From a virus (Duplodnaviria > Heunggongvirae > Uroviricota > Caudoviricetes): a stretch of DNA of 18,919 nucleotides. The translations under genes and the position numbers were made by a program. Shown here piece by piece: positions 472 through 18,919 of the stretch. The first letter of the stretch is position 1. Every line of letters starts with the position of its first letter. The notes beneath the pieces were generated by a model. The model was not told the DNA's origin, did no database searches, and worked only from the letters and a program-made list of their open reading frames with translations. The DNA lies in the IMG/VR virus record IMGVR_UViG_2563366942_000019; one strand, given 5' to 3'.

Positions 472-1268
472 GTCAAATGCCATTAAATGGAGTCAGTGCT
501 GCGATGCGCGAACGGGTATCGCAGCAGTTAAAAGAAATAGAACGTCGCTATGGCGTGAAAGTGCTGTACGCCTGCGAATCAGGCAGCCGCGGCTGGGGAT
601 TTGCCTCGCCCGATAGCGACTACGATGTACGGTTTTTGTATGTCCATCCGCTGGAATGGTATCTGCGTGTAGAGTCACCGCGCGATGTTATCGAGCTGCC
701 CATCGACGACGAATTAGATGTTTCCGGTTGGGAGTGGCGTAAGGCGCTGGGATTATTGAAAGGCGCGAATCCGACGCTGATAGAATGGCTGGATTCTCCG
801 GTGGTCTATCAACAAGATGAAGAAACGATAACGGCGCTTAAGGCAATGGTCCCAATGTGGTTTTCTTCGTTGCGTGCACGCTGGCATTACTATTCGATGG
901 CGCAGAAAAACTTCCGCGGCTATTTGCAGGGCGATGAAGTTCGACTGAAAAAATACTTTTACGTGCTGCGCCCGCTGCTGGCCGTGCGCTGGGTCGAAGC
1001 GGGTAAAGGCGTGCCGCCAATGCGCTTTGCTGAGTTACTGGCAGGAAGCGAGCTTGATGCGCCGTTACGCGAAGAGATTGACGAACTGCTGGAGCGTAAA
1101 CAGCGAGCGGGGGAGGCGGAATATGGTCCGCGCCGTCCTTTGTTACATGCGTTTATTCGCGCGGAGCTGGCGCGTGGGGAAATTCCACCGATTTTACCGG
1201 ACAGTCGAGATGGAGATGTTCGGGAGCTAGATAATTTGCTGTATCAAACGGTAATGCGCCGGGCATAA
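468..1268 (+). CDS. Predicted Pol-beta-superfamily nucleotidyltransferase (minimal NTase fold with C-terminal helical domain)
   Basis: 266 aa ORF. N-terminal motif ESGSRGWGFASPDSDYDVRF matches the G[SG]...[DE]h[DE]h signature of Pol-beta-type nucleotidyltransferases. ATGA overlap with the upstream SPFH gene indicates one operon. Substrate is unknown. Confidence 0.5.
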   Translation: MSQMPLNGVSAAMRERVSQQLKEIERRYGVKVLYACESGSRGWGFASPDSDYDVRFLYVHPLEWYLRVESPRDVIELPIDDELDVSGWEWRKALGLLKGANPTLIEWLDSPVVYQQDEETITALKAMVPMWFSSLRARWHYYSMAQKNFRGYLQGDEVRLKKYFYVLRPLLAVRWVEAGKGVPPMRFAELLAGSELDAPLREEIDELLERKQRAGEAEYGPRRPLLHAFIRAELARGEIPPILPDSRDGDVRELDNLLYQTVMRRA

Positions 1269-1285
1269 AGCCCGGCGTGATTTAT
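1254..1285 (+). terminator. Stem-loop overlapping the nucleotidyltransferase stop codon, between two convergent genes; possible terminator
   Basis: cgccgggc-ataaa-gcccggcg inverted repeat followed by tgatttatt on the plus strand. The U-tract is only moderate. Confidence 0.3.
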
Positions 1286-1737
1286 TGCTGGTATTGCCAA
1301 CTGCTGACTAAAGCGTACAAGTGATTTGGAGAATAGCGCCAGCTTTCCTTCAGTTGCAGAAATTCAGCACAAAATTCACTGCAAAACAGGCGATCGCGCT
1401 GTTCTTTATTACCGATAATAATTCCTAATGCTCCGCGCCAGTCATATTTTTTGCCATCATGTTTACGGAAAAAAGTTTCCACATCCTGAAGGCTGGCCTG
1501 GAGCGGCAGCATATCCCACTTATCCGCTGGCAATGGCATTATTTTTCCGCGTACACCGCGATCGCGCAGTGATGCGGAGTAACAAAGGTAACTCTTTTCA
1601 CCATGCTTAATGGCTAATTCACAGTGGGAATAATGACCACGTGTGATTTTACGGGTAAGCCAGTCAGCCAGTCGGGCAATACCACGGTGCTCTGTTCGGC
1701 CCTTATAACAAGCGAGCCAGACAGTGGTTTTACTCAT
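1282..1737 (-). CDS. Hypothetical protein, last gene of the tail operon; weak resemblance to permuted papain-like (YaeF/YiiX, NlpC/P60-superfamily) hydrolases
   Basis: 151 aa ORF whose ATG overlaps the stop of the fibre chaperone gene (ATGA at 1734-1737). Contains His-containing motif GHYSHCELAIKHG and, C-terminal to it, CSEFCAEF, reminiscent of the His-then-Cys order and CSE motif of permuted NlpC/P60 enzymes. Assignment is from memory of motifs only. Confidence 0.45.
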   Translation of the reverse strand: MSKTTVWLACYKGRTEHRGIARLADWLTRKITRGHYSHCELAIKHGEKSYLCYSASLRDRGVRGKIMPLPADKWDMLPLQASLQDVETFFRKHDGKKYDWRGALGIIIGNKEQRDRLFCSEFCAEFLQLKESWRYSPNHLYALVSSWQYQQ

Positions 1738-2441
1738 GGTTGCCAGCCTGTTGAATAATCGTAGTCGAGCACCGCCTGAATATCGTCCAGTGCTTCCACC
1801 GCCGCGATATGGTGCTGGGCGTTTGCGAACAAGCGCATATCGTGATCCATGGTGACCGATTCAAACTGGGCAGCGATTTCGTTGGTTAACTCAATCAGAC
1901 CATTATTTTTAGTTTTCCACATTAACCCTGGCGGAATTTTTTTCTCCGCTCCCATTTTTGTGAGTGAAAGCTGTTGGATACGGCTATTTGTATCACTGTG
2001 GAAGTGATGGTTGTTGATGATGATGTAATCGGTTGTGATGGCATCGCGTTGATTTTTGATTGCAGAGTATTTCGCCTCTTTAGCATCGGTTATAGATGGT
2101 TGCCATTTTTCACCATCCCAACGTTCAAAAGAACCTGTCGGGGAAATGACTGTTACATTTTCAGGTAATTGGCCCAATTCTTGAATAATAAGCTGGCTAC
2201 CATCAACTTTGTTATAAACAGTTTGGCCTCGATGATCTTCAATAAGTCTCCATGTTTCATTCTCCCACACTGGAGTAAAACCAGGAACCTTTTCGGGAGG
2301 TGAAATTAATGTGCAATAATTTGGCAAGCCTGTATTAGGTGCAATGTATGCATCAGACTCACCGATATATTCTTGGGAGTCTTGTGAAAAATTATATACA
2401 GTTAGTATTTGAGCTTCATCGGAAAAGGTAAAAGTATTCAT
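1734..2441 (-). CDS. Tail fibre assembly chaperone (Tfa-like)
   Basis: 235 aa ORF immediately downstream of the tail fibre gene and coupled to it by an ATGA overlap (2438-2441). N-terminal region has Tfa-like features (aromatic then Gly/Pro-rich, ...[11 protein letters not shown]...). Position matches Mu U / P2 G. Confidence 0.6.
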
Positions 2442-4078
2442 GCTAGCCTCACAATATAGTTGAATGCGATATTTTTGACGGTGTTTTCGGTGTTGCCGGT
2501 ATTATTAATGGTTAGGGAGTGATTATGGGAACCAAGGGCAATTGAATGCGAATGGGTGCCAATTGAAAGTTCATGTGTATGGCTACCCAATGCGATAGTA
2601 TGTGCATGGGTACCAATGGCTGTAGTATGAGAGTGATCACCTACAGTATCGGTATTAACGTAGTCATAACGAGAGTCACCTATAGAATCAGCGGTTAGTG
2701 CATTGCCACCGTAATCAGCATCACCTTTACATGTTATTTGATGTGAATGGCCCCCTGTGCTGGTCGACGATTTACTTCCGTGATTGAACGACGATGTTGT
2801 CTTAGAACCAAGATCAGAGGCAGATGTCGTTTTGTGTCCAAAATCAAAAGATGATGTTGCCTTTGTCCCTAAATCAGTACTCGAAATACTGCCCGTATGG
2901 TTATGTGATTTAATTCCATCCAGTTCAGTAGATAATATAGCTCGCCCACTGGATGGTTTTCCTTTAATTATCCATCCGCGCATGTCAGGAATAACACCAG
3001 ATGGATATGCAATTCCCAGTTTGGGATAGGAGGCTTTATTAAATGTCTGACCTGTCATCAGAGCGTAGCCTGAAGGTATAGAATCAGATGGCCAAGGAAT
3101 AGGCATCCCTACAGGACAGCTTTCCGCAGCAATAGCCTTATCCATCGCTGCCTTAACAGCGTTCGGCGTTGCAGCTTCCGTCGTACTGGTGCTGTTGGTC
3201 GCATTATTAAGTTTCACGACCCCTTTTTGCGTCAGCGTACCGTCGGGGATACCTGTTATTTGCCCCCAGGCATGGGTATGGCTGGACGGTGCCGCAGCAA
3301 TAGCCTTATCCATCGCTGCCTTAACCGCACTTGGTGTTGCAGCTTCCGTCGTACTGGTGCTATTTGTTGTATTGTTAAGCTTAACGACTCCTTTCTGCGT
3401 CAGTGTACCATCAGGGATACCAGTAATCTGATTCCAGGCATGATTATGACTGGTGGCAGCTTTGCTATTTGCCAGGTCATATGCCGTTTTTACCGCTTTT
3501 GGCGTGGCCGCTTTGGTTTCATCATCGCTATTAGTCGCATTACTCAGCTGCGTAAAACCTTTTTGTGTCAGCGTCGCATCAGGATGATTTCGTGATTGCT
3601 GATGTGTTTTCAACGCGTCATCGACATATTCCCTGGTTGCCACAACGACTGAAGGGTCGATCAAAAGCGTCACCGCATCTGCATTGGTGACTTCCATGAC
3701 CGCGCGTATAACGATTTGCTTACTGGCCCCCGCAGGTAATCGTGGCTTATAGGTTTCCGGGAATTTACCAATAGCGACCAGCGTGCCGTCGGTATCCAGT
3801 AACCCAACTTCGCGTACATACCAGCCTCCGACTTGTTCGGGAATAATCGCTTCTGCGATAACCCAGGCCGGATTATCTGGCGCAATTTTTAATGTATTGA
3901 GCTGACCACGCCAGACCTCATGGACTACTTTGGTCTGACTTTCTGTCGGTTCGATATATTTACCATTACCGTCGCCAACTACCATAGTTTGCAGACGGAT
4001 CTGTTTTTGCTCGGCCAGTGCTGAGGCAATTTTGGCTTTGCCTGCAGCAGTTAATATTGTAAAAAATTCACTTGCCAT
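2438..4078 (-). CDS. Tail fibre protein (Mu S / P2 H-like) with internal 56-aa repeats and His-x-His C-terminal tip
   Basis: Start chosen at the internal ATG (4078-4076) giving [39 protein letters not shown], the conserved N-terminus of Mu/P2-type fibres. The track ORF extends to 4201 but would overlap the upstream gene by about 120 nt. Contains tandem fibre-repeat units ([32 protein letters not shown]) and a C-terminal HxH repeat array. Confidence 0.85.
2500..2650. repeat. Short-period coding repeat encoding five His-x-His units at the fibre C-terminus
   Basis: Translation [44 protein letters not shown], with matching nucleotide periodicity around 2520-2640. Confidence 0.6.
3128..3600. repeat. 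About 2.5 tandem copies of a 168-nt unit inside the tail fibre gene
   Basis: aatagccttatccatcgctgccttaac... recurs at 3131 and 3299 (period 168 nt = 56 codons), with a third degenerate partial copy near 3464-3600. The copies encode the repeated fibre motif. Confidence 0.7.
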
Positions 4079-4080
4079 TA

Positions 4081-4812
4081 TTACTCCGGATATACAGACA
4101 TAATTTCGGTGCTCCAGTATCCTGTGCCGACCTTCATCGGTTGGGATTGTGTTAGTCGATCGGGTTGATAAGGTAGTAGTTGAATATATTCCTCCACACA
4201 ATAACCTGTCGCTAAAAATATTCCAGATGACTGGCTGAGGCTTTCTGCAACAGGAGGCAATACTGTAATGACTTCCCCTCCTTGCATGGCACTGCCAATA
4301 ACTGGTATTGGGCTTCGATTAATAAGCCAAATAACAATGCTTTCCAGCTTTGATCGGACATTTTTATATTCATGAATTAATGTGATAAGTGCATTGAATT
4401 CATCTTCATTTAATCCTTTTTCCTCTAGTGTAATATCAACCTTAAAAAAGTAAGCCTTTCCCCCATATTCAAACCATTCTGAAATAGTTCCTGGTAGCGA
4501 AAGTATTTCCAGTACCCGCCGTACCGCCCAAATCGTTCCTTTATATTTATGCAGCTCAATGGCTTGCTTAATTAACTCGCGCTTCTCCCGCTCATCGGTG
4601 GTAAATAACCAACCTTCCAGCCCCTGAACGTGAAATTGTTCTGCAAGGGCTGGTAATGCCGAAGCATCAACCAGGTCGACCAGATAAACCATCAACGCCG
4701 TCAGATCGAGTTGGGCAAAACGCTCGGCGGCGATGTTTGCCAGAATCGAAAAACGCTCATCGCTGGCAAGCGGCGGCGGTGGCAGCAATTTATCCATCGC
4801 TGACTCCGGCAA
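4081..4812 (-). CDS. Baseplate protein, P2 gpI / Mu gp48-like
   Basis: 243 aa; N-terminal [24 protein letters not shown] matches the LLPP..S...R signature of gpI-family tail proteins. Lies between the gpJ-like and fibre genes as in Mu/P2. Start may instead be at Met6; either way it overlaps the gpJ-like stop. Confidence 0.75.
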
Positions 4813-5905
4813 TCGTGACGTCTATTGCGGTGCATTCCGCCCACTCATGCGCCTGCAAAATACGTTTTGTAGGCATATTCAGCGCAACGTCATAGACGCC
4901 ATCGACCTGTAACACTTTGATTATCTGGTTTGGTACAATGTCCTGCCCCAGATGTTTCTGCCGCTGTTGCGTCCAGAGGCTAATCGCTTTACGCGCCGCA
5001 GCCAGCGTTGTCTCCTGATCGGCGGTGGTAAACAGCGTTAGCTGCGCACGGATCTCATACGGCACTCGAAGAGCGCATTTCGCACTCACTTTGTCGGTCA
5101 GCGGTCGTTTTTTCTCCTTGCTGACTTCTTGTTCAATCTGCGCCAGCAACTCCGTGCCGGGTAGACCATTCAGGGTTAGCGGGTAGATCTCCACGCAGCC
5201 TTCTGGCAATCCCTCGTCCGGCCCCAGTACTGCAACGTCAATAATCGACTGGCTAACAGAAAGCGTATGAAAGCGGTATGCGCCATAGCTGCCCGCATTA
5301 CTAAAGCTTTCTGGTGCCAGTTGGATACGCTGGCGCAATGCGTCATCGCTCTCTTCACCGCAGCCGCCCGTTGACGCAGTCAGGTTGGTTACGTTGATGT
5401 CATAATGACCAATCCTGTCGACCAGTGCGCTAATTTGTGCAGGCTGCCAGCCGTTGCCCTGTTCACCTGCTGCGAGGCTGGTGGCAGGAACGGCGATATG
5501 CAAACTCCTGGCCGGAAGCAGAACATCTTCATCGGTGGCGAACATCACGCTATCAGAGGCACTGGCCCGCGTCCCCTGGGGAATCAGGATATTGCTGGTA
5601 TACGCACTGACGACCGAAAACTGCAACGTCGTTTTTGCCGGTTGTGCAGGCAAACGGTGAACGCCCACCAGCTCCCCTAAATAATCCAGCATTGGCGCGC
5701 GGGAATACGCGACCAGGTTCTGTTTCGCCGCTTCCTGAATGGCGATGCGTACAAGGTTTTCACGATAGGCAAACAGGTCGATGAGCAACCGCTCAGCCTG
5801 TGCCGGATAGAGTTTTTTACCGCTGGCATCTTCATATTGCGCAATCATCTCACTGGTAATTTGCGCAGGATCGCGGTCAATAAAATTGGGTTCGGCTATC
5901 GCCAT
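4790..5905 (-). CDS. Baseplate wedge protein, P2 gpJ / Mu gp47 / T4 gp6-like
   Basis: 371 aa; size, position downstream of the gpW-like gene and overlap with neighbours are typical of baseplate J proteins. Confidence 0.75.
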   Translation of the reverse strand: MAIAEPNFIDRDPAQITSEMIAQYEDASGKKLYPAQAERLLIDLFAYRENLVRIAIQEAAKQNLVAYSRAPMLDYLGELVGVHRLPAQPAKTTLQFSVVSAYTSNILIPQGTRASASDSVMFATDEDVLLPARSLHIAVPATSLAAGEQGNGWQPAQISALVDRIGHYDINVTNLTASTGGCGEESDDALRQRIQLAPESFSNAGSYGAYRFHTLSVSQSIIDVAVLGPDEGLPEGCVEIYPLTLNGLPGTELLAQIEQEVSKEKKRPLTDKVSAKCALRVPYEIRAQLTLFTTADQETTLAAARKAISLWTQQRQKHLGQDIVPNQIIKVLQVDGVYDVALNMPTKRILQAHEWAECTAIDVTIAGVSDG

Positions 5906-14882: not shown

Positions 14883-14920
14883 AAAAAAATCCCCACCCTT
14901 ACATAAGGGTGGGGATTTTT
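14883..14920 (-). terminator. Rho-independent (bidirectional) terminator after the lysis cassette
   Basis: ccccaccct-tacata-agggtgggg 9-bp stem flanked by aaaaaaa (14883-14889) and attttt (14915-14920). On the minus strand the stem is followed by a U7 tract. Abuts the stop of the 14920-15234 gene. Confidence 0.7.
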
Positions 14921-15234
14921 CAATAACTGCCACGTTGTAACAGCTCGATTTTGCTATATAAGGCATCCAGCTTCGCTTCTAATACTGCTTGCCCACGAAG
15001 ATAATCTTCTCTGCGGACATAATGCAGCGGAAGCTCGGCACGAAATTCGAGAAATTCTCTTTCCAGTTTCGACCAACTTGTTTCTGATTCCCTGCGGGCA
15101 TTTTCCAGAGACTCAAAACGCTCATTAAGTCGTTTTTCAATTTGTGCTAACAGCAGTTTTCCGGCAGCAAACATTAATCCAACGAAGGAAAGCATAAGGG
15201 AGATCACTTCCCAAAAATCGATACTGAGTTTCAT
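14920..15234 (-). CDS. Lysis-cassette membrane protein: N-terminal transmembrane helix plus coiled-coil (i-spanin-like, or Mu gp25 releasin-like)
   Basis: 104 aa; hydrophobic segment WEVISLMLSFVGLMFAAGKLLLA followed by a charged heptad region (EKRLNERFESLENARRESETSWSKLEREFLEFRAEL). Good RBS (agagggg) upstream; lies 12 nt after the transglycosylase stop. Confidence 0.45.
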   Translation of the reverse strand: MKLSIDFWEVISLMLSFVGLMFAAGKLLLAQIEKRLNERFESLENARRESETSWSKLEREFLEFRAELPLHYVRREDYLRGQAVLEAKLDALYSKIELLQRGSY

Positions 15235-15246
15235 CGGCCCCTCTGA

Positions 15247-15852
15247 TTAATGAAGACAGCTTGCCTGTCCCCAGAGTAAATAGCGGGCGGCATGTTGATA
15301 GAGGATCATCTTTGGATAGCGACGATTTTCTCGCCAGTTCGTGGCGCTGCGCCCGGCGTTGACTTGCTCAACATGACCAAACCAGCTAGTGGCATCTAAC
15401 CCTTTGGATGCAGCCAGTTTTTTATCCCGGTTAACCCACCCCTGACCGCCGTTATAGGCGCTTAGGGTAAACGCCATACGCTGACAATCATTTTTCGCAG
15501 AGATGTTTTTCCACAAATGCTGGTCATATTGCACCAGCGCGCGAATCGCCCAGGTTGGGTTATACGGTTTGTTTTCACGCAATTGTGGATACAACTGGCT
15601 TATCCATGTCGCTGTAGCAGGCATAAATTGCGCCATACCTTGTGCGCCAACGGGGGAACGTACCATTGGCTGCCAGGCGGACTCCTGGTGTAATTGCCCG
15701 GCAAAGTCGGCCACTGGAGCATTCAGCCCCCAGACTTCTCGAGCTGTACGAATTAGTTCGTTTCGCCATGCCAGAGAGGCTCGCGGCGGTTCAGAGGCGT
15801 TAAGCGGGAAAAGAACGAAAATAATCATAGACGCGATATATTTCAGCCACAT
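15247..15852 (-). CDS. Lytic transglycosylase (SLT domain) with N-terminal signal/SAR-like sequence; putative endolysin
   Basis: Start chosen at the internal ATG (15852-15850) giving MWLKYIASMIIFVLFPLNA. SLT family-1 motifs are present: HQESAW, GAQGMAQFMP, AYNGGQGW. The track ORF starting at 15930 would overlap the upstream gene by 76 nt. Confidence 0.75.
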   Translation of the reverse strand: MWLKYIASMIIFVLFPLNASEPPRASLAWRNELIRTAREVWGLNAPVADFAGQLHQESAWQPMVRSPVGAQGMAQFMPATATWISQLYPQLRENKPYNPTWAIRALVQYDQHLWKNISAKNDCQRMAFTLSAYNGGQGWVNRDKKLAASKGLDATSWFGHVEQVNAGRSATNWRENRRYPKMILYQHAARYLLWGQASCLH

Positions 15853-16480: not shown

Positions 16481-17701
16481 TCAGTACGCCATATTCAGTT
16501 TCCCATAGTGGAACATAACTCCCAGTTTAAAGCGTTCCCGGTTTCGGTATCCCCTGGCCTTTATCCTCAGCAGTCTGATCTTGCTGTTCAGCGCCTCCGC
16601 ATTTCCATTCGAGACGCGATGACGCATTGCATTCAGTATTCCGTATAACCGTTTTTTAATGGTTTTCGCTGCGTTTTTCATCATCGGCACATCACATTCA
16701 GACGCCAGCGATATCCACTGCAACCAGTCATTCCTGCGTTCTGTGCTCCAGGGGCGATCCCAGATATTTTTTGCCAGCTCTTTCAGTGTCCAGCACTGGC
16801 TTGTCTGTTGCATCTGTTCCCGCAACCACATCAGCTTTTCCTGCCGGGACTCAGTCATCCATTTGTCGCTGTACTGCCACAGGAAGCGGGTACCTTTGGC
16901 CTGACGACGACTTTCAACAGGGAGGTGCGGATGTTCATTCTGGCGGGTTTTATCAACCACTTCGCCCAGTTGCTTCGCCACATGGAAGCGATCGAAGGCG
17001 ATTTTCTCGACCGCATTGGGTAAATGGATACGCGCTGCTCTTATATAGCCCGCATTCATGTCCATCGACAGTGTTTTGATGGCCAACAACTGACTGTCAG
17101 TAAGCGAACGGAGATAGCTGGCAAGACTCTCTGTGCCACGATCATCGGTTAATGCCAGTGCCCGCCCGTCGCGATCAGATACCACGGTTATATACCTATG
17201 CCCTTTTTTAAAGGCGACTTCGTCTACATTCATATGACGCACTGATAAAGGCTTTTTAATCCGCGACAGGCCTCGCTTAACCGCGCGGGTCATGATGCCG
17301 TCAACGGCATTCCAGCTAAGTTTAAGTTGTTTTCTGACCGCATCAACGGTGCTGATTTTAAGCCATGAGAGCACGAACGATTCGAACAGCAGAGTGTACC
17401 GACTGCCGGAACCTGCCCACGGTACAGGCAGAGTCTGGCAGCCATGCTCCGGGCACATAACGCGGGGAACATCGGCTTCTACTAATGTCATGAACTGGCA
17501 GGTATCAAGGTGGCGCCATTTACGATGTCGGTGATCGTGAACAGAACAGGATTTCCTGCAGGTCGGACAGGTTAACTGAGTATTTTCAGCAATTCCGACT
17601 GTAACAGTAACGGAACCTGCATTTTCATCGAGGGTAAGGGATTTAACCTGCCATGGTGCAGTCAGGTTAAGGATATGGGCATAGAGGGATTTTTCGTCCA
17701 T
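16481..17701 (-). CDS. ISL3-family transposase
   Basis: 406 aa; N-terminal zinc-finger-like CPTCRKSC...CPEHGC, then the DDE region with the ISL3-type motif NVDEVAFKKGHRYITVVSD. Confidence 0.85.
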   Translation of the reverse strand: MDEKSLYAHILNLTAPWQVKSLTLDENAGSVTVTVGIAENTQLTCPTCRKSCSVHDHRHRKWRHLDTCQFMTLVEADVPRVMCPEHGCQTLPVPWAGSGSRYTLLFESFVLSWLKISTVDAVRKQLKLSWNAVDGIMTRAVKRGLSRIKKPLSVRHMNVDEVAFKKGHRYITVVSDRDGRALALTDDRGTESLASYLRSLTDSQLLAIKTLSMDMNAGYIRAARIHLPNAVEKIAFDRFHVAKQLGEVVDKTRQNEHPHLPVESRRQAKGTRFLWQYSDKWMTESRQEKLMWLREQMQQTSQCWTLKELAKNIWDRPWSTERRNDWLQWISLASECDVPMMKNAAKTIKKRLYGILNAMRHRVSNGNAEALNSKIRLLRIKARGYRNRERFKLGVMFHYGKLNMAY

Positions 17702-17719: not shown

Positions 17720-18238
17720 TTACTTTAAACTGATATTATTATTTTTTGCCCACTTTCTTAATCTTCCATTAGCGTTGGCGTAAGGCGAAGATGTGTTAAA
17801 TGAGATCATTCTCCCCATCGTCCATTTTGTGTACCATGGTCTTCCATACAAAATATCATCGGTACGATCATTAATAAGGTTCACAATCTCATTTTTTACA
17901 GTATGAAGTTCAGCTACTAACAACTCATAACTTAACTCACTGTAATCTGAGTAAAATTTTTGAGCAAGAAGGCCAAGCTGATTCCATTTATAGCCAGTTT
18001 CCGGAAAATCGACAGGCAGACCTTTAGCATCAGAAGCGATCCACTTTACAACAAGAGCATTCCATCCAAGCAGATACGAAACGAGATCACGAACACTCAT
18101 CTCCGTTCCTTTGGCGTGTCCGTCCATTGATTTATCTGAAGTAATTTCTGGTGGGATTGTGTTGAGGTAACTAATTAATTTACTAAAATTTTTATCAATA
18201 GCTAAAAGCAGTTCAGCTTTTGTTTGCGGCACACTCAT
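17720..18238 (-). CDS. ClbS/DfsB-family (DUF1706) four-helix-bundle protein; passenger gene within the IS
   Basis: 172 aa; motifs DGHAKGTEMSVRDLVSYLLGW, FPETGYKWNQLG and RPWYTKWTMGRMISFNTSSPY recalled as characteristic of the ClbS/DfsB family. Good RBS (gaggga). Located inside the IS inverted repeats, upstream of and co-oriented with the transposase. Confidence 0.6.
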   Translation of the reverse strand: MSVPQTKAELLLAIDKNFSKLISYLNTIPPEITSDKSMDGHAKGTEMSVRDLVSYLLGWNALVVKWIASDAKGLPVDFPETGYKWNQLGLLAQKFYSDYSELSYELLVAELHTVKNEIVNLINDRTDDILYGRPWYTKWTMGRMISFNTSSPYANANGRLRKWAKNNNISLK

Positions 18239-18571: not shown

Positions 18572-18919
18572 ATGATACGAAAATCAAAAGAGATGGCCCG
18601 GACACCGGAGATCATTAACGACCTGGCTTTTCATGCATCGCAAGTTCTGATTGAAAGCATCAATCTCGACAGTTCATCGGCAGAAAATGTGGGCTTTGCC
18701 ATTGCCGACCGAATGATGCGTAACTGGGGCGGACAAAGCATTTATTTCCCTAAGGGGATCTCCGGACGAGCATCGGAGCGTGACTACCAAATCTATAGCG
18801 AGTGCGATGGGCGCAACTACGCCGAATTAGCGAAGAAATATAATCTGACGCTGCAATGGATTTATAAGATTGTGAAACGCGTACATGCGGAAAAGCAACA
18901 GCGCCGCAGTAATTCGTAA
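18572..18919 (+). CDS. Mor/C-family transcriptional activator (Mu middle/late operon regulator-like)
   Basis: 115 aa complete ORF (stop at 18917-18919). C-terminal ...ERDYQIYSECDGRNYAELAKKYNLTLQWIYKIVKR is the helix-turn-helix region characteristic of the Mor/C activator family. Confidence 0.75.
   Translation: MIRKSKEMARTPEIINDLAFHASQVLIESINLDSSSAENVGFAIADRMMRNWGGQSIYFPKGISGRASERDYQIYSECDGRNYAELAKKYNLTLQWIYKIVKRVHAEKQQRRSNS

Follow-up and report, generated by a model that had tools for sequence, protein, structure and literature searches.

The DNA analysed here, a stretch of 18,919 nucleotides that we refer to as the window, carries on its minus strand an uninterrupted open reading frame of 546 codons plus stop, running from an ATG at 4078 to a TGA at 2440-2438. 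A GGAG ribosome-binding site lies upstream of the ATG, and the stop overlaps the start of the next gene as ATGA. An initial annotation, made from the letters alone, had called this gene a tail fibre and placed it at 2438-4078; the coordinates are correct, and the call agrees with matches to Pfam (PF12571, PF03406 three times and PF07484) and to PHROG tail-fibre families. We considered a TTG at 4201 as an alternative start and rejected it in favour of the ATG, as the extended frame would overlap the gpI gene and every homologue starts with MASEFF or MDNEFY. The fibre gene, its parts and its neighbours are as follows.

1282..1737, minus strand: orf151, 151 residues, function unassigned by homology; found together with the gp37-like tip and a chaperone of the DUF4376 type
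1734..2441, minus strand: tail-fibre assembly chaperone, 235 residues, Caudo_TAP and DUF4376 domains; phrog_105 (tail fiber assembly), E 2.9e-44
2438..4078, minus strand: tail-fibre coding sequence, 546 residues plus stop; start set by homologue starts
2441-2491, minus strand: second part of the collar, residues 530-546 (2XGF alignment)
2507..2641, minus strand: returning stem strand, five consecutive nine-residue GxHxHxxxx units, residues 480-524
2541..2880, minus strand: putative allelic specificity cassette, residues ~404-513, about 340 nt (allele comparison)
2654..2740, minus strand: predicted distal tip subdomain, residues 447-475, equivalent to T4 gp37 residues 932-959 (2XGF alignment)
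2741..2908, minus strand: outgoing stem strand, residues 391-446, five ten-residue units, HxH at residues 392 and 444
2909..3124, minus strand: first part of the collar, residues 319-390, equivalent to T4 gp37 D10 residues 811-881 (PF07484, 2XGF alignment)
3122..3244, minus strand: shaft unit 3, residues 279-319, stopping after 41 residues at the start of the collar; 38/40 residues and ~84% of nucleotides shared with unit 2
3245..3412, minus strand: shaft unit 2, residues 223-278, Phage_fiber_2 plus linker SHTHAW; HxH at residues 267-269 (window 3272-3280)
3413..3580, minus strand: shaft unit 1, residues 167-222, Phage_fiber_2 plus linker SHNHAW; HxH at residues 211-213 (window 3440-3448)
3632..4078, minus strand: Phage_tail_fib (PF12571), N-terminal baseplate-attachment domain, residues 1-149 (Pfam E 1.8e-59)
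4081..4797, minus strand: gpI-type baseplate protein, directly upstream of the fibre

The gene downstream of the fibre is classed from its sequence as a putative Tfa/gp38-type assembly chaperone (Caudo_TAP, Pfam E 3.8e-7). The adjacent orf151 is present in L009-L012 and L016 and absent from E. albertii L014, whose tip is of another kind; the dN/dS of orf151 is 0.10. PDB sequence searches gave nothing significant for either the chaperone or orf151. Between orf151 and a convergent nucleotidyltransferase gene lies a strong bidirectional hairpin (1255-1279), the only feature above background in a promoter and terminator scan of positions 1000-5000, and an Rfam scan of the window returned no matches. 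PGAP labels the window's own fibre copy as two pseudogene fragments, and such labels are found on the fibre in MS 21-1, AR_0013 and NCTC9699, while CE10 and MS6198 have other alleles (81-85% protein identity) that the annotation gives as intact genes. The fibre at 2438-4078 is real and intact and is probably functional; the pseudogene labels of PGAP are here a mis-annotation of an intact mosaic gene.

The N-terminal domain is 96-100% conserved among E. coli alleles. Beyond it the shaft has a protein period of 56 residues, with units beginning at residues 167, 223 and 279 (window 3580, 3412 and 3244) and 2.73 periods in total; Pfam finds Phage_fiber_2 (PF03406) in three stretches (E 9.8e-52, 172.7 bits against a cut-off of 22). 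At the nucleotide level TRF reports a period of 168 at 3124-3453 with 2.0 copies and 83% matches, and a repeat search gave 162-nt copies spaced 168 nt apart with 84% identity. The repeats had been described as about 2.5 near-identical copies. This holds for units 2 and 3 as protein only, since their nucleotide sequences have a longest exact run of 34 nt, a dS of 0.72 and a dN of 0.033, and it does not hold for unit 1, which shares just 35/56 residues (62%) and 61% of its nucleotides with unit 2.

A PDB sequence search matched residues 317-546 to the receptor-binding tip of T4 gp37 (2XGF chain 25-242) with an E value of 2.8e-72, and Pfam places a Collar domain (PF07484) at residues 324-370 (E 2.1e-9). 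Domain limits for the collar were taken from the published work on T4 gp37 (PMC6957217). The five consecutive HxH units of the initial annotation lie at residues 480-524, and four further motifs that it had missed begin at residues 392 and 444 in the tip and at 211 and 267 in the shaft linkers. The nine motifs together hold 18 of the 23 histidines in the protein; the mean in shuffled proteins was 0.92 and the maximum in 20,000 shuffles was seven, so the count is far beyond chance. The likeness of the array to T4 gp37 proved stronger than had been claimed, with six of the seven T4 iron-site motifs conserved in position, one lost (FNH, residues 431-433, on the outgoing strand) and one extra. Four of the five array units align with the T4 iron sites H966/968, H980/982, H989/991 and H998/1000, while the unit with HxH at residues 491-493 has no T4 counterpart. 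H444/H446 correspond at an offset of +784 to H929/H931, an iron site that is essential for function in T4 (PMC6957217).

In 78 homologues (52-70% identity) five HxH motifs keep their histidines without exception, and a sixth keeps them almost always. Iron sites of this type are documented in gp37, in R1/R2 pyocin fibres and in the P2 gpV spike (PMC6116203), and by homology we predict that the present fibre is a metal-binding trimer. On the model of T4 gp37, the threefold axis would carry seven iron ions in the needle, one at each HxH motif there, and each HxHxW linker between shaft units is probably a buried octahedral metal site formed by six histidines, two per chain. The irons would serve to fold and stiffen the fibre and not to recognise a target. 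An AlphaFold2 monomer model of residues 317-546, built on the 78-sequence alignment, was too poor for a fold search (pLDDT 60.6, pTM 0.22), as one would expect when an obligate intertwined trimer is modelled as a single chain.

The C-terminal HxH tip had been proposed to set host range, and comparison of alleles moves this role inwards. Variation is confined to an internal cassette that covers the tip insertion at residues 447-475, as placed by gp37 homology, together with three HxH units. Outside it lie the other two units, which come last in the array, and the C-terminal 22 residues, all of them conserved scaffold. Nor is the C-terminus itself the tip, since by the same homology the chain folds back to the collar and the distal tip is the insertion at 447-475. 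This insertion is the most variable part among alleles and, by analogy with the mapping and mutagenesis of the T4 tip (PMC6957217), is the probable receptor-contact surface. Cassettes of E. coli alleles range from about 280 to 355 nt, with lengths of roughly 340, 325 or 280 nt among the alleles compared, and fall into at least three types, which leave seven, six or five HxH motifs in the tip. Four alleles were compared for their flanks: three show 97-100% identity there, and in the fourth (NCTC9699) the 5' flank has 96.6% and the 3' flank 89%.

The window's cassette occurs in six of 5,426 complete genomes. Mosaic combinations are found in ECE313, which joins an MS6198-type backbone to a CE10-type cassette, and in the divergent L009 backbone, which bears the window's cassette; the chaperone is not swapped along with it. 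No near-identical donor of this cassette was found in the phage collection, the best match being about 70% at the nucleotide level. Recombination near conserved motifs is described for T-even adhesins (PMC3157838). Two other ways of diversifying a tip were considered and rejected, their components being absent. For an invertible segment of the Mu G, P1 C or carotovoricin kind there was no invertase among the open reading frames and no alternative tip, and the single inverted repeat (19 nt, 84%, at 1344/4242) is not usable as a switch; for a diversity-generating retroelement there was no reverse transcriptase domain and no second direct-repeat family in 1200-4900.

The fibre belongs to a cluster with a complete contractile-tail set (sheath, tube, chaperone, TMP, U, X, D, V, W, J, I, fibre and Tfa), a lysis cassette of holin, SLT transglycosylase and lipoprotein, and a Mor-type activator; no Rz/Rz1 pair was recognised in the cluster. 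Capsid, packaging, replication and integration genes were all absent from the island between yjbD and lysC. The cluster is colinear with BcepMu minus gp02-gp20 and gp26-gp36, and in both E. coli and E. albertii it occupies the same chromosomal site, at the rluF-yjbD flank. In the strain of the window an ISEc53 copy stands between holin and Mor, separating the activator from the operon, and may affect expression of the cluster. A literature search found no description of particles from this cluster, and the published "ST131 tailocin" was rejected as a candidate, being a different and complete P2-like prophage (PMC9205054).

We read the fibre as the receptor-binding homotrimer of a BcepMu-type contractile tail, built from known modules, and the head-less cluster as a candidate R-type tailocin with specificity encoded in the cassette, and assign this a probability of about 0.72. 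The cluster would have retained lysis and tail genes and lost those for head, packaging and transposition. Of four modules in the fibre, the N-terminal domain would dock on the gpI/gpJ baseplate wedge, followed by a shaft of three 56-residue Phage_fiber_2 units, a gp12/gp37-type collar and a gp37-type needle in which the chain follows the stem outwards, makes the tip at residues 447-475 and comes back through the five GxHxH units to the collar. Target specificity would reside in the cassette at residues ~404-513 and be swapped by recombination between conserved flanks while the Tfa-type chaperone stays constant. Contact with a receptor is proposed by analogy with known fibres, and production of tail particles is predicted from gene content. 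A bolder version seems to us somewhat less than an even bet: that this is a vertically maintained, undescribed Escherichia R-type tailocin derived from a BcepMu-like transposable phage, whose killing is diversified by cassette exchange and whose reach is tuned by the number of 56-residue units, each adding an HxH motif.

The same cluster could be what is left of a BcepMu-like prophage in decay, functionless today, its motifs and repeats being inherited anatomy only. The pseudogene labels and the insertion of ISEc53 fit such decay, as do a gpI frameshift in two strains, an IS1 in the fibre of one strain, an in-frame deletion of 75 residues in one allele and the presence of the gene in merely 149 of 5,426 complete genomes. 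However, the reading frame here is uninterrupted, with its ribosome-binding site and coupled neighbours, and the CE10 and MS6198 alleles are intact even by annotation. Every tail gene, the fibre, tfa and orf151 have dN/dS values of 0.02-0.24 against a lineage at dS 0.1-0.4, which indicates purifying selection. The losses comprise exactly the head and early modules, with lysis, tail and Mor genes kept, and the same locus is occupied in two species. We consider simple decay unlikely. As for the metal sites, HxH-bound iron might itself be the recognition element, mimicking a ferric siderophore for a TonB-dependent receptor as a "Trojan horse", so that the array sets specificity. The array is prominent and conserved, and such mimicry is discussed for HxH-bearing fibres (PMC11705849). 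In solved fibres, however, the iron lies buried along the axis of the trimer, where it is assigned a role in folding or stiffness (PMC6116203), and the T4 contacts map to the tip subdomain, binding LPS and OmpC (PMC6957217). Furthermore, alleles with wholly different cassettes share the last two HxH units with little or no change, and invariant motifs cannot explain allele-specific targeting; we regard siderophore mimicry as highly improbable.

The 168-nt repeats had been put forward as a substrate for length change, an idea against which an invariant number across many strains would speak. Between species it finds support: relatives carry from one to six shaft units, with five in E. fergusonii, four in E. 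ruysiae and four or six at the orthologous loci of E. albertii, where the inner copies are 93-98% identical in nucleotides. Within E. coli the number is invariant, at three units in each of the 149 complete genomes that have the gene. A stronger proposal, that the repeats are an active contingency locus in which unequal recombination often alters fibre length among strains, could draw on these species differences and on two-unit E. coli versions in Logan and ENA assemblies, whose junctions fall inside the longest exact runs. These versions (P0006, P0010, P0013 and P0118) were downgraded as real copy-number variants, since they are confined to short-read assemblies and absent from complete genomes. 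Samples with two-unit contigs are SRR13823722, SRR29303244, SRR30123950 and SRR31920467. The P0010 junction, the only one measured at the nucleotide level, spans an exact run of 31 nt, which we take to be the k-mer size used by Logan; many NCBI short-read contigs break inside the fibre gene, and one two-unit source (P0118) is a scaffold whose copy of the gene contains Ns. Together these points point to assembly collapse. Strain WB61, with a repeat region that looked longer, was the sole apparent exception to three units, and the added length is a defect of the assembly, which has Ns there. The dS of 0.72 between units 2 and 3 exceeds that between lineages and there is no homogenisation, and a literature search on copy-number variation of Phage_fiber_2 found nothing relevant. 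An active contingency locus is thus doubtful, though we would rate it slightly above prophage decay; under the tailocin reading, whole 168-nt units would only rarely be added to the shaft or lost from it, the number staying at three in E. coli and having risen in E. albertii.

A head-less tail cluster is conserved in E. coli lineages that include the extraintestinal pathogens IAI39 and CE10, as well as in E. albertii. If active, it would give E. coli a tailocin whose specificity cassettes can be exchanged in nature. The analysis gives a residue-level map that separates likely specificity (residues ~404-513, with the tip loop at 447-475) from the conserved metal scaffold, which is what the design of chimeric fibres needs.

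Among known systems, Bcepmuvirus (Burkholderia phage BcepMu, Escherichia phage PhiKM and Klebsiella phage KP12) shares the Mor-type activator and the order holin-SLT-lipoprotein followed by gp37-gp38-sheath-tube-chaperone-TMP-U-X-D-V-W-J-I-fibre, with a sheath 71-74% identical (71% to BcepMu gp39). It differs in having the early and transposition genes gp02-gp20 and the packaging and head genes gp26-gp36, and the BcepMu fibre gp52 is a different protein of 785 residues with no Tfa annotated in the BcepMu record. The shaft repeat matches residues 99-158 of the Mu fibre S (gp49) in a PDB search with an E value of about 2e-6, and S and other PF03406 fibres (PDB 5YVQ, 8JU3) have likewise a repeat of about 40 residues in variable number and a Tfa chaperone downstream. 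The aligned stretch of S is without HxH, whereas the linkers here carry it, and Mu swaps its tip by inversion of the G segment, for which the window has neither invertase nor alternative tip.

The R1/R2 pyocins of Pseudomonas aeruginosa (PDB 6CL5/6CL6; PMC6116203) are similar in being chromosomal head-less contractile tails whose receptor-binding fibre has a dedicated chaperone gene downstream, specificity in its C-terminal part and HxH as a buried octahedral iron site in a trimeric shaft, the last seen in the pyocin structures and predicted here. The PDB search detected no sequence match to them, their tail is P2/CTX-like and not BcepMu-like, and they have one iron site and a lectin-fold foot in place of the nine HxH motifs and gp37-type needle seen here. 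The closest likeness in the tip is to T4 gp37 (residues 811-1026, 2XGF), which is homologous over the whole collar-stem-tip-stem-collar module, with an identical C-terminal stretch of 18 residues, a conserved GGN core of the tip loop (G457 G458 N459, in T4 G942 G943 N944) and a Tfa/gp38-type chaperone gene directly downstream. In contrast to the T4 fibre of 1,026 residues, the module here sits on a BcepMu/P2-type fibre of 316 residues, and no gp57A-like gene was seen in the window. The second T4 motif (H915/H917) is degenerate, and the stem would seem to be longer than in T4, given the extra HxH unit and an outgoing strand with 20 more residues. The receptor-critical T4 positions N937, G938, G940, S947 and Y949 are all altered, so the receptor probably differs from that of T4. 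The fibre is nothing new in kind, every module and the HxH-iron principle being already documented; it is assembled from well-known modules that join a repeat shaft to a tip homologous to the iron-binding needle of T4.

The minus-strand ORF at window 2438-4078, which the initial annotation had read as a tail fibre gene, is intact: its 546 codons run from an ATG at 4078, with GGAG upstream, to a TGA at 2438-2440, and the stop overlaps the start of the Tfa-type chaperone gene as ATGA. Consistent with this reading, Pfam identifies an N-terminal tail-collar-fibre domain (PF12571, aa 1-149, E 1.8e-59), three copies of Phage_fiber_2 (PF03406, E 9.8e-52) and a Collar domain (aa 324-370). In a PDB search aa 317-546 match the T4 gp37 receptor-binding tip (2XGF) along the whole length with E 2.8e-72, and this match, the decisive result, shows homology rather than analogy, so that the likeness to gp37 proposed from the histidine array is stronger than was claimed. 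All components come from known families: PF12571, PF03406 and a collar and needle of gp37 type make up the fibre, and its chaperone is of the Tfa family. Structure prediction of aa 317-546 as a monomer gave a poor model. The gp37 domain limits (collar 811-881 and 1010-1026, stem 882-931 and 960-1009, tip subdomain 932-959; PMC6957217) were transferred by alignment. T4 numbering is the 2XGF chain residue plus 784, which was checked on H929/H931 (chain H145/H147) of the same paper.

Fibre domains by alignment to T4 gp37 (fibre residues, minus strand)
aa 319-390 and 530-546: collar
aa 391-446: outgoing stem
aa 447-475: predicted tip subdomain
aa 476-529: returning stem

T4 gp37 HxH motifs and the aligned fibre residues
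H883/885: 392/394
H915/917: F431-N-H433, degenerate
H929/931: 444/446
H966/968: 482/484
H980/982: 500/502
H989/991: 509/511
H998/1000: 518/520

The outgoing stem strand (window 2741-2908, aa 391-446) is made of 10-residue units. The five consecutive HxH units reported initially are present, each of 9 residues (aa 480-524, window 2507-2641), and four further motifs lie in the tip (aa 392 and 444) and the shaft linkers (aa 211 and 267). Together the nine motifs account for 18 of the 23 fibre histidines, while shuffled sequences gave a mean of 0.92 motifs and a maximum of 7 (n=20,000). Among 78 aligned homologues with 52-70% identity to the fibre, the histidines are invariant in five HxH motifs and nearly so in a sixth; since their consensus also has five returning units, the five-unit array is the family norm and not a peculiarity of this fibre. 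In the T4 gp37 needle seven iron ions are bound, one per HxH motif, with three chains contributing (PMC6957217). Six of these seven motifs are in register with the fibre, which adds one at 491/493 to bring the total again to seven. Buried octahedral iron sites formed by HxH motifs are found in gp37, R1 and R2 pyocin fibres and the P2 gpV spike, where a role in folding or stiffness has been assigned to them (PMC6116203), and homology strongly indicates that the fibre motifs would also bind metal.

Of the 5,426 complete genomes of E. coli searched, 149 carry the fibre gene, in whole or for no less than the first three-quarters of its length. In 60-nt windows the alleles are mostly 95-100% identical across the N-terminal domain, shaft, collar, last two HxH units, C-terminal 22 residues, chaperone gene and orf151 (a 151-aa ORF), and they are wholly unlike in sequence and length within a sharply bounded block at approximately window 2541-2880 (aa ~404-513). 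Three E. coli types have cassettes of roughly 340, 325 or 280 nt, and tips with 7, 6 or 5 HxH motifs. Compared with the MS6198 type, the window's type is longer by one unit on each strand (10 aa outgoing, 9 aa returning), which suggests a stem with one more layer; the two needle strands appear to have been lengthened together. ECE313 carries a CE10-type cassette on an MS6198-type backbone, the L009 locus carries the window's cassette on a backbone that is ~10% divergent, and as read from these alleles the cassette moves between backbones. The window's own cassette occurs in only 6 of the 5,426 complete genomes, and no close relative of it was found in the phage collection. It holds the predicted tip subdomain, with a conserved GGN core, and at the positions critical for the receptor in T4 gp37 (N937, G938, G940, S947 and Y949) the fibre residues all differ. 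The initial annotation had placed host range at a C-terminal HxH tip. Allele comparison and the T4 map retain specificity within the gp37-like part, but they point to the HxH array as scaffold and to a true tip internal to the sequence.

The shaft had been described as about 2.5 near-identical 56-codon repeats, a substrate for changes in length. The 168-nt period is real; its units start at aa 167, 223 and 279 and, as unit 3 ends after 41 residues, amount to 2.73 periods. Near-identity, however, holds only between units 2 and 3 and only at the protein level (38/40 residues; ~84% of nucleotides, longest exact run 34 nt), while units 1 and 2 share 62% of residues. Units 2 and 3 differ with dS 0.72 and dN 0.033, and because dS between the lineages compared is 0.1-0.4 their duplication is older than the lineage split and has not been homogenised.

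Comparison of repeat number across strains went against variation within E. coli: in all 149 complete genomes the repeat region is fully covered, and each of the matches inspected is one piece of 601 nt, the length of three units. WB61, the one outlier in copy number, is an assembly defect containing Ns. Versions with two units come solely from short-read assemblies (Logan and ENA) and are probably assembly collapses. In contigs of the protein variant P0010 compared with NCTC9699, the only junction measured at the nucleotide level, the two-unit junction spans an exact run of 31 nt, the k-mer size of the Logan assemblies; one two-unit sequence comes from a scaffold whose fibre gene contains Ns, and the fibre gene is where many short-read contigs at NCBI break off. 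Between species the proposed length change does stand. At the same site the complete E. albertii genomes CP117620 and CP099877 have, respectively, four units with a gp37-like tip and six units with an unrelated tip and different chaperone. E. fergusonii has five and E. ruysiae four, and counts range from 1 to 6 across 120 relatives. The inner E. albertii units are 93-98% identical in nucleotides, which marks recent tandem amplification. In Escherichia fibres the shaft HxH count equals the number of units minus one, with one HxHxW linker per added unit. Unit gain and loss is thus real over evolutionary time at a locus that is not hypervariable within E. coli. In locus L014 (10001-12194), from CP099877.1, the fibre ends after its six shaft units in a non-gp37 domain; the Caudo_TAP chaperone has 172 aa, and a glycosyltransferase gene lies downstream. 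The replacement seems to have taken tip and chaperone together, as a single block.

Orf151 (window 1282-1737, minus strand) has no Pfam or PDB match and a single match to phrog_1128, a 'moron' family. It occurs with a DUF4376-type chaperone and gp37-like tip, is missing where the E. albertii fibre carries another kind of tip, has a dN/dS of 0.10 and may be a putative second assembly factor.

PGAP/RefSeq annotates the MS 21-1 fibre as two 'incomplete' pseudogene fragments (window 2840-3124 and 3179-4078), and treats AR_0013 and NCTC9699 likewise; CE10 and MS6198 have other alleles of the gene, which are listed as intact CDSs. With the ORF uninterrupted, the split looks like an annotation artefact caused by the gene's mosaic make-up. 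All tail genes, both fibre halves, the chaperone and orf151 have dN/dS values of 0.02-0.24 in comparison with the divergent L009 lineage, which argues for maintained function of fibre and cluster. Other strains carry occasional lesions: gpI is frameshifted (loci L006/L007, 2783-3498), IS1 has inserted into the part of the fibre gene that encodes the collar region (L008, from NZ_OZ501657.1, 4536-5233), and protein variant P0016 has lost 75 aa of the tip in frame, between two 'TFN/SFN' sites.

The window matches the chromosome of E. coli MS 21-1 at 100% identity and IAI39 and CE10 at ~99%, and holds most of a ~20 kb island between yjbD and lysC.

Island genes
Minus strand, start: holin, SLT-type transglycosylase, small lipoprotein
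Minus strand, then: Gp37-family protein, small protein, sheath, tube, tail chaperone, tape measure
Minus strand, then: gpU, X, D, V, W, J and I equivalents
Minus strand, last: fibre, Tfa-type chaperone, 151-aa ORF
16481-17701 and 17720-18238: ISEc53 (ISL3-family) copy and ClbS/DfsB-family (DUF1706) gene, beyond the holin gene, between it and the Mor-type activator
18572-18919, divergent: Mor-type late activator

The lysis cassette (14920-15852) comprises the holin, the SLT transglycosylase and a 104-aa lipoprotein/membrane protein, with no recognisable Rz/Rz1 spanin pair where BcepMu has gp23/gp24. At the far end of the island (1-1268) are a slipin (SPFH/Band 7) pseudogene, interrupted by an internal stop, and the gene of an RlaP-family nucleotidyltransferase; they run towards the tail operon, from which a strong hairpin at 1255-1279 divides them. 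In MS 21-1 ISEc53 may uncouple the operon from the activator and could impair operon expression. Some strains, including strain 20, match the window only up to 16449, and since this is just before the transposase gene at 16481 they may lack ISEc53.

The sheath is 71% identical to BcepMu gp39 and the gene order is colinear with BcepMu, except that counterparts are lacking for the early and transposition genes gp02-gp20 and for the terminase, portal and head genes gp26-gp36. This leaves a head-less lysis-plus-tail cluster. This layout is the usual R-type tailocin architecture. The cluster, BcepMu-derived on gene content and under purifying selection on dN/dS, occupies one and the same place in the chromosomes of E. 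coli and E. albertii. We consider the whole cluster a candidate, apparently undescribed Escherichia R-type tailocin; with exchangeable cassettes included, this reading has a probability of about 0.4. A search of the available literature found no paper on particles from this cluster, and the published "ST131 tailocin" is a different entity, a complete P2-like prophage.

The initial observation holds and was for the most part interpreted correctly. To it the analysis adds proven homology to gp37 and a domain map at residue level, the boundaries of the specificity cassette and the context of a selectively maintained tail cluster. It also corrects two points: the HxH array is scaffold, and the repeats, although amplified in E. 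albertii, are old in E. coli and stable there. Both the HxH-iron principle and the exchange of fibre tips in mosaic fashion belong to textbook phage biology, and Tetart et al. (1996/1998) reportedly named GxHxH motifs "His boxes" in the context of adhesin exchange. T-even adhesins have a hypervariable segment flanked by conserved motifs, with exchange at or near these motifs (PMC3157838), and the pattern of the fibre cassette matches this description.
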